Positions 3,964-11,111 of a DNA stretch of 32,000 bases are shown piece by piece (the first letter of the stretch is position 1; each line of letters begins with the position of its first letter). The stretch spans positions 480,001 through 512,000 of the forward strand of contig JASBSB010000007.1 in NCBI GenBank assembly GCA_030149205.1, in the 5' to 3' direction. The stretch comes from Candidatus Heimdallarchaeota archaeon (GTDB lineage Archaea; Asgardarchaeota; Heimdallarchaeia; Heimdallarchaeales; Kariarchaeaceae). The notes below the pieces were generated by a model. That model saw only the letters and a program-made list of their open reading frames with translations. It searched no databases and was not told the DNA's origin. The position numbers and the translations under genes are program-made.

Positions 3964-4860
3964 TTGTCGCATTCTTTCAGTTACTTGATATCAAATTTAG
4001 AAGAAGGATTTGCGAATGTAAATGAACTCACACTCCATTATGTCAGTCTTGGTGAAAAGGGTGACCCTCTATTAATTCTCCTGCATGGGTTTCCAGAATA
4101 TTGGACGGGATGGCTCAAGGTAGCGGAGAAGTTGGTTATAGAGGGCTTCTTTGTCGTCCTTCCCGATCAAAGGGGATACAATCTAAGTAGCAAACCAAAA
4201 GGAGTAAAAAACTATCAAATTTCGAATTTGGTTTCAGATGTTGTAGAACTTGCAAAACAATTGGGGTACAGTCAGTTTATCCTAGGTGGCCATGATTGGG
4301 GCGCAGGTGTTGCTTGGGCAACTGCATTACTCAAACCAGAGCATGTAACCAAGCTAATAATTGTGAATGTGCCGCATCCAGTATCCATGGTTAAATACCT
4401 TAGAAGGAGCTGGAGACAGAAGTTAAAGTCATGGTACATGTTCATGTTTCAGATCCCTTGGATACCTGAGTTCCTTTCCCAAAGGTTCAACTATTATGTG
4501 TTCCGCAGAACAATCACCAGGTCTTCACTCCCTGAAACTTTTTCACAAGAGGAGATTGAAGAATTAACTCAAACCTGGGGAAAGAAAGGTGCGTTATCCT
4601 CAATAATTAATTGGTATCGAGCCGCATTTAGATTTCCAGCCAAATATGAAAACAAGATCGTTGAGATTCCTACGCTCATCATTTGGGGTAAAAATGACAG
4701 GTTTTTACTAGAAGAAGCTGGAAGAGATAGCCTGAATTACTGTTCTGAGGGGAAGTTTCATCTAATTGAAGATGCAACCCACTGGGTTTTGCATGAGAGA
4801 CCAGAACAGGTAAGAATGGCAATTGTTGATTTTTTGTCCTCTGAAAGAAAACAGAATTGA
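3964..4860 (+). CDS. Alpha/beta hydrolase, epoxide hydrolase-like
   Basis: LLHGFPEYW oxyanion motif, GHDWG nucleophile elbow (Asp), IIWGKNDRFL, HWVLHERP catalytic His; TTG start. Confidence 0.9.
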   Translation: MSHSFSYLISNLEEGFANVNELTLHYVSLGEKGDPLLILLHGFPEYWTGWLKVAEKLVIEGFFVVLPDQRGYNLSSKPKGVKNYQISNLVSDVVELAKQLGYSQFILGGHDWGAGVAWATALLKPEHVTKLIIVNVPHPVSMVKYLRRSWRQKLKSWYMFMFQIPWIPEFLSQRFNYYVFRRTITRSSLPETFSQEEIEELTQTWGKKGALSSIINWYRAAFRFPAKYENKIVEIPTLIIWGKNDRFLLEEAGRDSLNYCSEGKFHLIEDATHWVLHERPEQVRMAIVDFLSSERKQN

Positions 4861-4865
4861 ACAAA

Positions 4866-5987
4866 TTATCTAAATCTAATATTTTTTCTTCTGATAATTG
4901 GAATGATAAGGACAAAAATTAATTGAACTGAGACAAAGGGGTAATCTAGAAATTGCGCCTTGGGAAAAGGTGGTGCTGTGAATGTGCTCAGAGCACCACC
5001 ATAAGAGTCCAACAGTGTCCCGTTGATGGTAGAATACTGGAAGAAACTTGAATTACTGCTTGTGACCAACACTGAAGTGCCTCTCCAATCAAAGTTGTGA
5101 ATTCTATAAGATGGTGTCTTAAATTCTAGCCTCTTTGTGAGGTCTGTTTTGTTCCAGACACTCACCACCCCTCCTTCATCCCCAAGAATCAGCTCAGAGT
5201 GGTTGAAATTAAAGGCGAAAGCGGTCACATTTTTTGAGTTCTTCAACACCGTGCTTTTACCATCAAAAAACCGTATCTCGTTGCGAACACTAACTACCAA
5301 GGTTTGATTATCCCATCCGATTGCCTTCGGTATGTGCTGGAACCCATAGGATTGTTGCTGGGTGCCATTTATGATGACAACCGTGCTGTTTTTTAAAAGG
5401 AGTGCCACCTGATTGTTTGTGTTCACCTTGATGTCTAAGATTGTGGCATTGGTTTTCAGGATTGGAGTTATACTCCCATTCATCATGTTAGGTCTTGCAA
5501 GAACCGCGGTTTTGTTTAGTGATAAATATGGGTCAACTAAGTTCTCCCCCACCAGTAACCCAAGCAGGAAGCCATCTTTAAACCACGACATAGCACTAAA
5601 AGAGTAACCTGCAGGATGGAATGTTGTCTTTTTGTGGTAACTTGCATTCCAGATATGTAATCCATCTAACCAGCTCATTCCCGCAAGATAAGTTCCATTT
5701 GATGACCAGGCTAATCCTGAAACTCTATCACGGGGGAGACTATCCATAAGTGGTGATTTGTAGAGACCAGTGCCTGAAGAAGAGTTTTTCACGCTCCAAA
5801 TGATTATATTTGAATCACCACCCCCAGAGACTATCGTTGACCCATCTGGGCTCCATACAGCAAAAATGACGGGGCCGATATGTCCATATCTGTATACAAT
5901 TCCTGGAATTGAGGCAAAAGAACCTGTGGTAAGGGAAATTACTAGTATTGAGACTAATATCAGTTTATTTTTCTGAGATAATTTCAA
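4866..5987 (-). CDS. Secreted, C-terminally membrane-anchored WD40 beta-propeller protein
   Basis: Signal peptide (KNKLILVSILVISLTTGSFA). WD40 repeats GHIGPVIFAVWSPDGSTIVSGGGDSNIIIW, VSGLAWSSNGTYLA...IW and VTAFAF...LILGDEGGVVSVW. 14 N-x-S/T sequons. C-terminal hydrophobic stretch plus RRKNIRFR tail. TTG start preceded by GAGGTGA and overlapping the upstream TGA. Confidence 0.8.
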   Translation of the reverse strand: MKLSQKNKLILVSILVISLTTGSFASIPGIVYRYGHIGPVIFAVWSPDGSTIVSGGGDSNIIIWSVKNSSSGTGLYKSPLMDSLPRDRVSGLAWSSNGTYLAGMSWLDGLHIWNASYHKKTTFHPAGYSFSAMSWFKDGFLLGLLVGENLVDPYLSLNKTAVLARPNMMNGSITPILKTNATILDIKVNTNNQVALLLKNSTVVIINGTQQQSYGFQHIPKAIGWDNQTLVVSVRNEIRFFDGKSTVLKNSKNVTAFAFNFNHSELILGDEGGVVSVWNKTDLTKRLEFKTPSYRIHNFDWRGTSVLVTSSNSSFFQYSTINGTLLDSYGGALSTFTAPPFPKAQFLDYPFVSVQLIFVLIIPIIRRKNIRFR

Positions 5988-7665
5988 ATGTTCACCTCAC
6001 TCATGAGCTTAGGTGTGATTGATTCAAAAACTTGATCCAGTATTCTGAGTTCCCACCATTTACCATCACCTACCCACCAAAACTTTGAATAAAATGAATT
6101 GGGACCTGAATTTTTCCAAGAAAATGTAAACATTACAGAGTAAGGTCTATTACCCCAATCGTACGCTTCCCCTTTCCCAGAAATGTACCATTTCAAAATG
6201 GTAAACGTATGTCCTAATTCATGTAAAGCAACAGACTTGATTTTCTCATCATCTGTACGCCAATTGTTCCATGTAGGGAGGTCTCGGATAGCCTGAACTG
6301 CGATAAACGCGACAGGATAAAACTCATAGTGGGTTCCATTATCATCTAATGCTAAATTCCATCCTAACGCCCCATCATCCTGTTTGTTACCAAAAAGCAT
6401 GTATCTGTGGTTATCTGGGTGACCTGTTTTTACCCAGCTCTTGGTGTCATAGTAAGATCTAAGTGTTGGTTGAGACATATATTCCACACTATTCACCATT
6501 GTACTACTGACGTGAAACACAAGTCTTTCATAGCCATTCGATTCATAATAAGTCTCCATGTAATTTATCACTGCATCAGATGGTTTGTATCCATCCATCC
6601 AATCGACCTCAACATGTATTGCCTCATAGTTAATTTTAAGCAAATTAAGAACCCAGCCCTTTTCCACAGCAGCTCCAGATCTTATGATTAGGGTTAATCT
6701 GTGACTGCTTCGAGGCTCAAAATCAGAGAGGCTAAAGGAAGTGAGTGAATAGCTGTTATAAACTGCGGTCTCAGGTACTACAATCTTGTTATCAACCTCC
6801 ACTGAAAAAAACCTTCCATAAGAATCGAGACTTTTCTCAATTTTAAGCGATAATCTTGTGTCTTTTCCTCCAATAAAATCGGTTTCTATCTTTGAAATGT
6901 ATGACTTTGGAAAAAACTGTGTATCTAATACTCTGGCATCATTTCCAGATGATGTCTCTAGGTATGCATAGTCTAACATCCAACCATGTTCCACATAGCC
7001 TCCCCAAGTTATTTCAAACCTTATCTCAGCTTTTGAACCAGACAGAAATTGCCCAATATCAATTTTTATTTTGTTATTTACATCAGAAAGAGTATATTGG
7101 TTTAAAACAATCTTTCCTGCACAATATATGGTTAATAGTCGATTGTATGTATCACTAATTTTTCTGATGTTTGCTTTCAATACCCATACTTGTTCGCTAC
7201 CAAAGGATCTGGTTGTTCCTAAAATTATTTGAGAGGTGCCAGCTTTTGGGAAGTAACTTCCCTCTTTTGTTAAGAACTGTGCATTATCATCACTAAAATT
7301 CTTATCAATAGTATTTATTGTACTTGCTGCAAATGTTGGAGCTGTACCTGACTTCAATGAGACAGGTCTGCTTAGGTTGGCTACGTTTTGTGTGTTATTC
7401 GAAAACTCATTCTGATCTTGTGTATTTTGGGATTGAGGCAGATTGTTCTGTTGATACTGCCTAGATTTAATTTTGGAATGGTTTCCACCCTTTAATTGCT
7501 GGAGAGGTATAATCTGTTCTGATTCTCCCTGTTCTGAGTCTACTTCATTCAATTTTTCATCGTCTGTACTTAAATATCTTTTGTCATCTAAAACTGTGCC
7601 CCCCCCCCCGCGAATTGACTAACATTTAGCAATAATATAAGTAAAAGGCTATTTATTTTGATCAT
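5984..7665 (-). CDS. Secreted zinc metalloprotease (HExxH, metzincin-like), frameshifted at a G11 tract just after the signal peptide
   Basis: HELGH at 6223-6209 and YSVM Met-turn-like motif. The main frame is open from 7618. ATG 7665 encodes MIKINSLLLILLLNVSQFAGGG, then runs to TAG at 7590-7588 with 11 G. With 9 or 12 G it joins the main frame (560 aa with 12 G). Confidence 0.72.
7599..7609 (-). repeat. G11 homopolymer (C11 on +) inside the coding region
   Basis: gtgcc cccccccccg on the + strand; the only long G/C run seen in this AT-rich window. Confidence 0.95.
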
Positions 7666-7967
7666 TTCTATATGATAACCAATTCATATTATTAAACATT
7701 TAGATTATAGAAACTAGAATCTGTGTTGTAGTATCTAACTATAAGACCATACGCTTCTAATCAATAACTTTTCACCTTTTAAATGTCGAAATTAATTTCT
7801 AGAGTTAGTTATCAATGTTCCTCTGAACTAGTTACAAATAAAATAATGAAGTCATTGATTTTGCATGTCTATAATTTCCATTAACAATATTCTCAAAATG
7901 TATTCAGGTTTACTGAAACTGAGTAGAAGCAGATAATTTGATATATAACAATAAGATTTATTTTTTA

Positions 7968-8969
7968 TTGAGGATACTAGTCTTTGGAGATACTCATTTT
8001 GGTCTAAAGCTTGGTAAAACTGGGTATTCCAAGGCTCAATCCATCAAGGAAGCGTTTAAAGCCTTCGAGCAAATTATTAACCTAACAGAAACGGAAAAAA
8101 TTGATGTGGTAATTCATGTTGGAGACGTCTTTGATCGCTCTAAACCAGACAAAAAAATCGTGCATAAGGCTTATTCTCTCTTTGAACGGCTTCTGAATAC
8201 CGGGGTTAAATTTATAATCATCCCCGGAAATCATGACAGATCAACCCTTGATAACACTCTTCTTGAACAAATTTATCCAAATTTTCATATATTGAATTCA
8301 CTAGGTTCTGTGAACTACGAGGATTGGAATTTTGTAGGGTTTCCATTTACAAAAAGTCCACAACAAACTTTAGAACTTGCGTTTCAAATTGCTGAGGAGA
8401 AGAAACAGTTTAAAACAATAGTTTTTTGCCATCAAACTTTTATTGGAGCTGAGGTGGGACCACAAAACTTCAAATTTAATCTAAAACATAACGCAGTTGT
8501 CGTCAATAAATTACCAGTAAATGTACCTTTCATTGTTTCTGGTCACATACATCGTGCTCAAATTTTGCAAGATGGAAAAGTGATATATCCTGGTTCAGTT
8601 ATTAGAACAAGCTTTCAGGAGTATATTGAGCCAAAAGGTGTTCTTATTATAGATGAAGAGGGAGGAACCTTAACAGTCAATTTCAAAGAAATAGAATCAT
8701 CAACATTGGAGGTGGTTGAGGTTAGGTATGATGAACTGGATAAGACACTCAGAGAGATAGATCCACAAATTAGAACCCTAGTCCGGGTCATAGACAAATC
8801 CTTTGAACGTCATGAGTTAATAGAAATGTACAAAAAGGTCTCCTTATCTCAATTACCCTTGTTACACCTATCACCTAACCAAGAGAATGTTGTTTTAAAA
8901 CCCCTGTATTCGACTTATAAAGGCAGTTTCCTTCCTTTTCATCATACTCTTGACCTGCATCTTGTATGA
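7968..8969 (+). CDS. Metallophosphoesterase, SbcD/Mre11-like DNA repair nuclease
   Basis: GDTHFG, HVGDVFD, IPGNHD, CHQ, SGHIH and YPGS motifs. Probable TTG start at 7968 (MRILVFGDTH), with ATATATAA at 7941-7948 upstream; the ORF track starts at 7938. Confidence 0.85.
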   Translation: MRILVFGDTHFGLKLGKTGYSKAQSIKEAFKAFEQIINLTETEKIDVVIHVGDVFDRSKPDKKIVHKAYSLFERLLNTGVKFIIIPGNHDRSTLDNTLLEQIYPNFHILNSLGSVNYEDWNFVGFPFTKSPQQTLELAFQIAEEKKQFKTIVFCHQTFIGAEVGPQNFKFNLKHNAVVVNKLPVNVPFIVSGHIHRAQILQDGKVIYPGSVIRTSFQEYIEPKGVLIIDEEGGTLTVNFKEIESSTLEVVEVRYDELDKTLREIDPQIRTLVRVIDKSFERHELIEMYKKVSLSQLPLLHLSPNQENVVLKPLYSTYKGSFLPFHHTLDLHLV

Positions 8970-9167: not shown

Positions 9168-11111
9168 ATGCTTCAAGAGAAGTTTGAGGATACAATGGAT
9201 CCCACTGTAAAACCTCAAGATGATTTTTATCGATATGCCAATGGTAAATGGTTGAAAAATACAGAGATTCCCCCAGATAAAAGTAGATGGGGGTCATTTA
9301 CTGTGTTACGGGACAGGTCTCTGGATGATGTTAAATCACTCTTAGAAACTGAGTTTACCTCAGGTGAATACAAGAATGCCAGTGTGTTTTTTAAGGTTGG
9401 AATGGACTCCTCCAGATTAGATCAAGAGGATTATACCCCGATTAAACCTTTTTTGGAACAGATCAATGCAATTCAAACCCGAGATGAGCTAAAAGAGGTC
9501 ATAATCACGCTAGAAGACAAGGGATTACTTGGATACACTGGGTTCTCGTCAAACCAAGACAGGAAAAATACAGATATTGAGATTCCTCATTTTTCCTCAG
9601 GTGGATTAAGTCTTCCATCATCGAGGTTCGGAAACAGGGACTTCTATCTTGAGGAGGATAAAGAACCAATTAGAGAAGAATACTTGAAATATCTTGAAAA
9701 ACTCTTTGGATTTATAGGGGAAAATGACCCAAGCGCTTTAGCTCAACGTGTCTTGAGTTTTGAAAAAAGCTTGGCAGAGAAACATTATACTCAGGTACAA
9801 AAAAGAGATCCAGAGCTTTCATACAACAAGATGGATTTCTCCGAATTTAAGACAAAATACTCAAACTTTCTATGGGATACCTATGTCTCAAAATTTACAG
9901 ATGTGGAATTAAGTGACATTGTTGTTGATAATCCCCCATTTTTTGAATTTATAAATAACCAGATCGAGGAGGAGGACTTAGAAAATTGGAAGACCTATCT
10001 TAAGGCAAGAGTAATGAACAGGTCTGCAAGTTATCTCAGCCAAAGATTTGAAGAAGCATCTTTTGATTTTTATGGTAAGGTCATTAGTGGACAGAAAGAG
10101 ATGGAAGACCGCTGGAAACGTGTTGTGGGGATGATGAACAACCGGTTCATACTAGGTGAGCTTGTGGGTAAACTATATGTCGAAAAATTCTTCCCTGCCT
10201 CTTCAAAGGCGAAAATGCTCGATTTGGTTAATAATCTAATAGAGGCATTGGAACAGCGTATTCACAACTTGGACTGGATGGGTGAAGAAACCAAGAAAAA
10301 GGCACTGGTCAAACTTAAAGCCTTTAATGTAAAAATAGGGTATCCTGATGAATGGGAGGACTATTCATCTCTTGATTTAGATGAAAGTGACAGTTACCTC
10401 AATATCTTGAACAAATGCACAAGACTGCAGAGAGACAATATGCTCAGCAGGTTATACAAGGCTCCTGATAGAAAGAAATGGTTTATGTCACCTCAGACAG
10501 TTAACGCGTACTACTCACCTCTTAAGAATGAGATCGTTTTTCCAGCTGCTATCCTACAGTTCCCATTTTTCGACCCCAACATGACAGACGCAGAAAATTA
10601 CGGTGGGATTGGTGCTGTGATTGGACATGAGATCAGTCATGGTTATGATGACAAAGGGAGTATGTTTGACGCTAATGGAAACATGAACAACTGGTGGACA
10701 GATGAAGACAGAAGGCAGTTTAATGAACGAAGTGAACACTTCATGCAAGAGTATGAAAAATTCTTGGTAAATGGAAAACCTCTAATTGGAAAACTTACCT
10801 TGGGTGAAAACATAGGTGATCTAGGAGGACTGAGGATTTCCTTCCATGCTATGGAAAACAATTATAAGAAACTTGGTCGTGAAGAGTCTGGCGATTACAC
10901 GAAAGAACAACTCTTTTTTATGTCTTATGCCAGAATATGGAGATCATTGAGCAGACCAGAAATTGCAGAAATGTTAAGGGTAAGTGACCCTCACTCTCCA
11001 CCCGAGGCTAGAGTAAACGTTGCATTGGCAAACATCCCTGAATTCCACCAAACTTACCCAACCAAGCCTGGGGATGGAATGCATAGAGAGACGATAGTTG
11101 AACTCTGGTAA
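9168..11111 (+). CDS. pepO: M13 family metallopeptidase (PepO/neprilysin-like), cytoplasmic
   Basis: PQDDFYRYANGKW, TVNAYYSP, GHEISHGYDD (HExxH), GENIGDLGG, DPHSP..RVN; no signal peptide. Confidence 0.95.
   Translation: MLQEKFEDTMDPTVKPQDDFYRYANGKWLKNTEIPPDKSRWGSFTVLRDRSLDDVKSLLETEFTSGEYKNASVFFKVGMDSSRLDQEDYTPIKPFLEQINAIQTRDELKEVIITLEDKGLLGYTGFSSNQDRKNTDIEIPHFSSGGLSLPSSRFGNRDFYLEEDKEPIREEYLKYLEKLFGFIGENDPSALAQRVLSFEKSLAEKHYTQVQKRDPELSYNKMDFSEFKTKYSNFLWDTYVSKFTDVELSDIVVDNPPFFEFINNQIEEEDLENWKTYLKARVMNRSASYLSQRFEEASFDFYGKVISGQKEMEDRWKRVVGMMNNRFILGELVGKLYVEKFFPASSKAKMLDLVNNLIEALEQRIHNLDWMGEETKKKALVKLKAFNVKIGYPDEWEDYSSLDLDESDSYLNILNKCTRLQRDNMLSRLYKAPDRKKWFMSPQTVNAYYSPLKNEIVFPAAILQFPFFDPNMTDAENYGGIGAVIGHEISHGYDDKGSMFDANGNMNNWWTDEDRRQFNERSEHFMQEYEKFLVNGKPLIGKLTLGENIGDLGGLRISFHAMENNYKKLGREESGDYTKEQLFFMSYARIWRSLSRPEIAEMLRVSDPHSPPEARVNVALANIPEFHQTYPTKPGDGMHRETIVELW

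Follow-up and report, generated by a model that had tools for sequence, protein, structure and literature searches.

Background

Slippage-driven phase variation is regarded as a form of bacterial bet-hedging, found mostly in host-associated species. In the pilC gene of Neisseria, a poly-G tract lies within the region coding for the signal peptide, and its switching has been shown experimentally. Campylobacter jejuni, Haemophilus and Helicobacter possess poly-G/C contingency loci, with tens of tracts per genome, and in N. meningitidis the homopolymers in the promoter spacers of porA and opc set the spacing between the -35 and -10 elements. Here we describe a tract of 11 G residues (G11; homopolymers are written in this way throughout, and contigs are always named as such) that separates a signal peptide from the body of a likely but not proven secreted zinc protease. 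It is located on the minus strand of a 32,000-nucleotide stretch of DNA from Candidatus Heimdallarchaeota archaeon (GenBank assembly GCA_030149205.1, contig JASBSB010000007.1, positions 480,001 to 512,000), hereafter called the window. The tract is most likely a real and probably functional gate, of a kind well known in bacteria that we have not found described in archaea.

The window gene resembles pilC in that a G homopolymer lies at the end of the gene that encodes the signal peptide of a surface or secreted protein, and in that the length of this homopolymer shifts the frame between ON and OFF. However, the host of pilC is a bacterial pathogen, whereas the present gene belongs to an Asgard archaeon, has a probably leaderless start and is known from assembled sequence alone. 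The likeness to C. jejuni, Haemophilus and Helicobacter is that a genome has several homopolymer loci, which tend to fall in genes for surface or secreted functions. In contrast to the tens of tracts in those bacterial genomes, the Asgard genomes compared here contain about 2-6 G/C runs of at least 9 nt each, some at the 5' ends of secreted-protein genes and others in unrelated contexts.

A non-pathogenic example is provided by Bifidobacterium breve UCC2003, in which sortase-dependent pilus genes contain an intragenic G tract and are expressed through slippage (Penno et al. 2022, PMC9187656). The population contains tracts of various lengths, and equivalent tracts occur in related genes across the genus (PMC9187656). 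The window gene resembles this system in its non-pathogenic host, its intragenic G tract and the recurrence of such tracts in related genes of the genus. It differs in that B. breve is a bacterium, that the pilus tracts do not lie at a signal-peptide junction, and that slippage in B. breve was measured by maximum-depth sequencing, whereas our evidence is drawn from sequence only. The only established case of frameshift recoding in archaea is the programmed -1 ribosomal frameshift of Sulfolobus solfataricus fucA1 (PMC1616953; review PMC8211752). There too, an archaeal gene is split into two open reading frames (ORFs) joined by a -1 shift; but fucA1 uses an A-rich slippery heptamer, whereas the window gene exhibits G11 with no downstream structure, and its sister loci require other shift directions.

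An earlier note on this DNA, prepared without database searches, had proposed a stochastic ON/OFF switch for a secreted metalloprotease and had considered such switches poorly documented in archaea. Statistical surveys have covered archaea (PMC2831843), a 2025 review lists the archaeal distribution of phase variation as future work (PMC11868660), and our literature search found no Asgard example of slippage-driven phase variation nor any paper linking phase variation to Asgard archaea.

Results

The features of the locus were located as follows; the conservation of the motif and of Glu 484 is drawn from a 15-sequence alignment.

7687..7696 (-), TATA-like box tttaataata, starting 31 nt before ATG 7665
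7588..7665 (-), signal-peptide mini-ORF from ATG 7665, 25 codons plus TAG (7590-7588)
7619..7621 (-), TAG closing the protease frame upstream, three codons ahead of the tract
7599..7609 (-), G11 homopolymer (exactly 11 G), the frame gate
5984..7618 (-), protease body, 544 open codons, to TGA 5986-5984
6209..6223 (-), HELGH zinc-binding motif, residues 466-470 of the protein (P0001)
6167-6169 (-), Glu 484, invariant in the alignment, candidate third zinc ligand
4866..5987 (-), gene for a WD40 beta-propeller whose N-terminus carries a hydrophobic segment; start codon TTG, overlapping the TGA of the protease gene (TTGA)

The ORF starting at ATG 7665 reads MIKINSLLLILLLNVSQFAGGGAQF and ends at TAG 7590-7588. 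By inspection, it exhibits the layout of a signal peptide, with a charged n-region (MIK), a hydrophobic core (INSLLLILLLNV) and SQFA, followed by glycine codons. Its peak 9-residue Kyte-Doolittle hydropathy is 3.1; the glutamine at -3 is not ideal for a cleavage site. G11 begins 19 codons downstream of ATG 7665, and the protease frame is -1 relative to the signal-peptide frame. As the stops at 7621-7619 and 7590-7588 bound the two frames, any frame change must occur within 7618-7588, a segment of 31 nt with the tract inside. With 11 G the gene is OFF, and either G12 or G9 puts signal peptide and protease body into one frame; if two G of the tract are left out, the translation shows the continuous N-terminus MIKINSLLLILLLNVSQFAGGGTVLDD, ...SQFAGGGTVLDD.... 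The first in-frame start of the protease frame itself is TTG 7552, after which no signal peptide or hydrophobic segment is found.

These results uphold the description in the earlier note of the signal peptide from ATG 7665, G11 at 7609-7599, the stop at 7590-7588 and a protease frame open through the tract behind a stop at 7621-7619, for which we count 544 codons from 7618. Its arithmetic was also correct, in that 9 or 12 G would join the frames into about 560 residues and 11 G is OFF, and the promoter box that it placed upstream of the ATG is indeed present (tttaataata, starting at -31). TATA-like 7-mers peak sharply at -30 to -27 of well-defined ATG starts genome-wide, which indicates that many genes of the host are leaderless. 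The box sits on this peak, which supports ATG 7665 as a real start.

The host genome (3.31 Mb, 12 contigs, 35.5% GC) contains an archaeal small-subunit rRNA, and the host, recognized as archaeal in the earlier note, is a Heimdall-group Asgard archaeon from sediment. G11 is more than a chance occurrence. It is the sole G/C run of at least 7 nt in the window, in line with the earlier note, which had called it the only long one. A scan of the whole genome for G/C runs of at least 9, as suggested there, gave three (lengths 9, 11 and 13), while about 0.03 runs of at least 11 would be expected by an estimate from base composition. GGG accounts for 20% of glycine codons, and none of 243 runs of exactly three glycine codons in long ORFs is coded entirely by GGG. 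Since pure-GGG glycine runs are otherwise avoided, the tract itself needs explaining. The genome encodes a full-length MutS, and NucS was not found in it. Loss of mismatch repair as the cause of the tracts was set aside, as MutS is present.

Contig ends of the assembly overlap by exactly 141 nt with 100% identity. This indicates a short-read de Bruijn assembly, to which the homopolymer errors of long reads do not apply. In a separate k=31 Logan assembly of run X1, a 115 kb contig of word depth 81 matches the window exactly from 5900 to 8300, the 11 G among them. Run X1 is the probable source sample, so this agreement checks the assembler and not the reads; two assemblies, probably of reads from one and the same run, both give 11 G as the majority length. 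Genome-wide, we found 6 candidate frame breaks at about 546 long homopolymer sites, and the other G8/C8 runs inside ORFs of at least 255 codons are all in frame (6/6). A repeat of about 940 bp resembling an insertion sequence (IS) is found on contig C3 (1-944) and on contig C2 (2755-3666 and 371996-372934); together with shared contig ends of 141 and 134 nt, it explains the assembly breaks. One copy of this IS-like repeat, diverged and locally GC-rich, contains a C9 run (contig C2, 3257-3265) that splits open frames of 110 and 93 codons.

We searched the genome for the same layout, defined as an ATG, a hydrophobic peptide, a tract, a frame break and an ORF of at least 200 codons. Two of the 56 G runs of at least 7 exhibit it, both at signal-peptide junctions: G11 of the window and a G8 on contig C6, which precedes a 445-codon subtilase and needs a correction of -1 nt. 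In the control runs (C7 or longer, A9 or longer, T9 or longer) there were two layout hits, both non-hydrophobic. The contig C6 gene of the same organism thus repeats the design of ATG, signal peptide, G run, frame break and protease body. It differs in encoding a serine rather than a zinc protease, in lying on another contig, in its shorter tract and in its correction, which is -1 nt there and +1 nt in the window.

The subtilase family of the contig C6 gene, a single copy here, has 13, 12 and 7 matches in same-genus sister genomes. A survey of this genome (G000) and of genomes G001, G002, G003 and G007 revealed five broken subtilase paralogues spread over four genomes.

G000, contig C6: G8, out of frame with its own signal peptide
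G001, contig C33: G15, out of frame with its own signal peptide
G001, contig C153: G10, out of frame with its own signal peptide
G003, contig C26: G8, out of frame with its own signal peptide
G007, contig C319: G8, located inside the signal peptide, out of frame

Nine tract-free subtilase paralogues have in-frame signal peptides. Signal peptides vary widely among the subtilase paralogues. Three related broken copies share 68-77% protein identity, with a ratio of nonsynonymous to synonymous substitution (dN/dS) of 0.07-0.09 and saturated dS. Such low ratios imply that the broken layout has been kept in working genes, and exclude both pseudogene and error for that subtilase clade. The maintenance of this clade behind tracts drifting in length from 8 to 15 raises the prior for the same reading of the window gene. 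The corrections required by the six intragenic tracts are +1 nt for G11, G15 and one G8, and -1 nt for G8, G10 and G8. As in homopolymer contingency systems, the tracts are long and 5'-located, a change of one unit toggles the frame, and several loci are involved, enriched in secreted functions.

Behind G11, the protein body starts with about 120 residues of low-complexity, disordered linker, continues with two beta-sandwich domains and ends in an HExxH domain. In the alignment of 15 sequences, no variation is seen at E467, G469 and E484, and hardly any at H466 and H470. Sub-threshold Pfam matches across the family are all to zinc metallopeptidases (M12, M43 and M10); the best for the window protein is Reprolysin_5 (E = 0.02, 15.6 bits against a cutoff of 27), and no curated Pfam peptidase family matched it above threshold. 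A profile search of the PDB gave nothing significant (best E about 0.4, MMP-14). The AlphaFold model has a mean predicted local distance difference test score (pLDDT) of 55, and Foldseek returned beta-sandwich or carbohydrate-binding-module-like matches alone, with template modelling (TM) scores of at most 0.22 and no protease fold. The proposal of a metalloprotease in the earlier note thus stands as far as the conserved HExxH is concerned, but has gained neither a family match above threshold nor a fold match. The conserved residues and the sub-threshold matches make the body a likely, though not proven, secreted zinc protease.

The family is small, as 1.8 billion proteins include 42 representatives of it. 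Homologues exhibit 38-43% identity over 77-91% of the length, and the full-length ones all begin with a signal or anchor peptide in frame, which argues that the window body needs the upstream peptide for export. The pairing of protease and WD40 genes is conserved beside homologues in other genomes, and beside the paralogue on contig C9. The protease body is intact and constrained. Its 544 codons stay open in a genome of 35% GC. A relative of about 91% identity in run X2 covers 6629-7579, and among the 10 differences listed of 88, eight affect third codon positions and six leave the amino acid unchanged (binomial P 0.003 for at least 8 of 10).

The sole paralogue in the genome (contig C9, about 105094-106584; L006:1430-2945) is a decayed copy of the whole module. 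Its ATG has become AAG, about 450 codons have been deleted and the tract is an interrupted 10-mer (AGGGTGTGGT); about 90 N-terminal codons of the body are joined to the last five (…SEVNI), and an intact 384-aa WD40 paralogue follows with the same TTGA overlap. A 36-nt piece of a run X2 contig resembles this paralogue with its interrupted 10-nt tract.

The genes of relatives present a second layout. Full-length protease homologues from the genus and from two further metagenome-assembled genomes (MAGs) each carry G7, G9, G6, G10, G11 or C9 just before the ATG, between it and a TATA-like box, and the tract is preceded by a conserved AGGAAAAAYATTAAATAT-like BRE/TATA element (BRE, transcription factor B recognition element). 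The comparison with related genomes, which the earlier note had advised, uncovered these promoter tracts (G6-G11 or C9) in homologues, but no close orthologue of the window gene with an intragenic tract. Two subtilase genes of another genus are arranged as TATA-C10-ATG and TATA-G8-ATG. These observations show that G/C tracts gather at the 5' ends of genes in both protease families. A Shine-Dalgarno role of the upstream G tracts was set aside, as two loci carry C tracts in the same place. Among more distant homologue loci, none of three has a promoter tract (two distinct genes, one of them in two assemblies). We do not claim a descent of the intragenic tract from a promoter tract; alignment of the 5' flank to homologues gave no convincing positional homology.

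Counted by hand, the TATA box starts at -22 for G6, -24 for G7, -24 for C9, -26 for G9, -27 for G10, -27 for a second G9, -28 for C10 and -29 for G11, the genomic optimum being -30 to -27. Tract length thus sets the distance from TATA box to ATG, and in leaderless genes would decide whether or not the transcript begins at the start codon. The promoter tracts of relatives (not the tract of the window) resemble those of porA and opc in being variable-length G/C tracts inside the core promoter. In contrast to the latter, they are flanked by an archaeal TATA box on one side and a start codon on the other, in genes whose mRNA is probably leaderless, and would set the transcript start relative to the ATG. 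To our knowledge, such a TATA-tract-ATG variant has not been described. It is possible that in Heimdall-group Asgard archaea G/C homopolymers act as a general gate of secreted proteases in two layouts, one intragenic and one TATA-tract-ATG, and we put this forward tentatively.

The promoter core AGGAAAAAYATTAAATAT(gttcaa / atccaa) occurs about 25 nt upstream of the tract in loci L002, L003, L005, L008 and L010, and is shared by paralogues and orthologues that have no other upstream similarity. At three of these loci, the AGGAAAAAYATTAAATAT element contains an ATG, and the frame from this ATG runs through the tract into that of the downstream start. On contig C5 (7464-7476) a C13 run ends just ahead of a TATTTAAA box; the TTTAAA within this box begins 30 nt upstream of the ATG from which a signal-peptide protein of 380 codons is read (MKVKTLFMLILLIGMM...), and C13 sits at the BRE position. 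Read on the minus strand as G13, the same run was rejected as the head of a gene of the window family, as no ORF follows the tract. Further tracts in relatives are a G11 at L029 (G002, contig C229), a G10 directly after the ATG at L044 (G002, contig C321) and a G9 at the 3' end of an ORF for a 280-aa signal-peptide protein at L025 (G011, contig C216). These three are located at an ORF boundary or just past an ATG, and may mark more gated genes.

The neighbours of the locus in the window are a calcineurin-like phosphoesterase gene (7938-8969, +), divergent from the protease promoter, an M13 (neprilysin-like) peptidase gene (9168-11111, +) and an alpha/beta hydrolase gene (3964-4860, +).

Discussion

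The best explanation of G11 in our view is a maintained slippage gate with heritable phase variation, in a sampled population that is mostly OFF; we regard this reading as about evenly balanced between right and wrong. The transcript would probably start at or next to ATG 7665, leaderless, under the TATA box from -31. With 11 G, translation would stop after 25 codons and no protease would be exported; the translationally coupled WD40 gene downstream would probably be under-translated too. A gain of one G or a loss of two would fuse the signal peptide to the body, giving a preproprotein of about 560 residues. The slip would be mainly a heritable replication slip, as in bacterial contingency loci. 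We infer a useful rate of tract-length change, the existence of ON cells and an exported protease product. With regard to the stochastic switch of the earlier note, the comparative data bear out a maintained, slippage-dependent design, while heritable switching is still presumptive.

Several observations weigh against this reading. Tract-length polymorphism was not seen in the assembled contigs: run X1 has 11 G, and contigs of run X2 (the 91% relative) and of run X3, at a depth of 3-5, break off some 20-24 nt before the tract from either side and are silent on its length and on absence. Second assemblies of homologous loci exhibit identical tract lengths, although most are near-identical DNA, probably from the same samples; two strains differing at 0.6% of bases both have G6, and length variation (6-15) is confined to comparisons among paralogues or species. 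In the consensus, each of the six intragenic tracts is OFF with no ON allele found, for which the chance is about 0.09 and not significant. Mismatch repair, given the full-length MutS, may damp slippage. The assignment as a protease draws solely on the HExxH motif and sub-threshold family matches. The only paralogue, on contig C9, is a decayed pseudogene with an interrupted tract, and no close orthologue of the window gene with an intragenic tract was found in homologue and relative-genome searches. No matches turned up in Joint Genome Institute (JGI) metagenomes, which were scanned both with the family alignment and for a conserved DNA word of 24 nt. On the other side, the lengths 8, 10, 11 and 15 among paralogues imply that the DNA length has changed over evolutionary time.

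A different account keeps the DNA fixed in the OFF state and corrects it at the RNA level, either by stuttering of RNA polymerase or by a -1 slip of the ribosome on G_GGG_GGG, which would yield little product at a steady level and act as a dosage limiter for a potentially harmful secreted protease. We consider this unlikely, though a serious rival. It would suit the fact that the six intragenic tracts of two protease families are all out of frame while their bodies are under strong purifying selection. The sequence also contains the slippery heptamer of a programmed -1 frameshift, G_GGG_GGG, which lets both tRNAs re-pair, with the protease body in exactly the -1 frame, and programmed -1 frameshifting is known in archaea from S. 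solfataricus fucA1 (PMC1616953, PMC8211752). However, no stimulatory structure was found downstream: the RNA folding of 7612-7500 gave z = -0.9 relative to shuffled sequences, and a centroid without a strong hairpin. The sister loci, moreover, need shifts in opposite directions. The lack of structure and the differing corrections make a specific ribosomal frameshift unlikely; polymerase slippage is spared by the objection from shift direction, and fits. Against RNA-level correction of either kind stand the widely differing tract lengths of the paralogues (8, 10, 11 and 15) and the case of B. breve, in which expression gated by comparable G tracts is ascribed to replication slippage (PMC9187656).

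Recent inactivation is an equally doubtful alternative. Here a glycine-coding G run would have slipped by one base, leaving a young pseudogene with no adaptive switching. Homopolymers are the likeliest sites of first-hit frameshifts, the consensus is OFF with no ON allele seen, and the contig C9 paralogue, with no ATG, little of the body left and an impure tract, demonstrates that copies of this gene do decay. However, the window gene retains 544 open codons at 35% GC, and its differences from the 91% relative are mostly at third positions. The broken subtilase paralogues persist over saturated synonymous divergence with dN/dS below 0.1. Inactivation also leaves the tract itself unexplained, as pure-GGG glycine runs are otherwise avoided.

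Finally, a sequencing or assembly error in an ordinary constitutive secreted protease gene with a true length of 12 or 9 G, which the earlier note had held to be the main alternative, is now very improbable: all platforms struggle with long G runs and the Logan contig perhaps derives from the same reads, so that the data are not independent, but the short-read de Bruijn assembly has a depth of about 81, two assemblers concur, homopolymer frame breaks are rare genome-wide and specific to signal-peptide junctions, and the same design appears in assemblies of other groups and samples.

Conclusion

If the maintained slippage gate is correct, such "frameshifted" genes in Asgard MAGs would be neither errors nor pseudogenes, which would be a warning to annotators. 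The TATA-tract-ATG layout of relatives, if true, would amount to an archaea-specific promoter phase variation, with a new coupling of tract length to expression. Contingency loci would extend to archaea, and among them to free-living sediment relatives of the eukaryotic ancestor, in which extracellular proteolysis would be expressed by only a fraction of cells.

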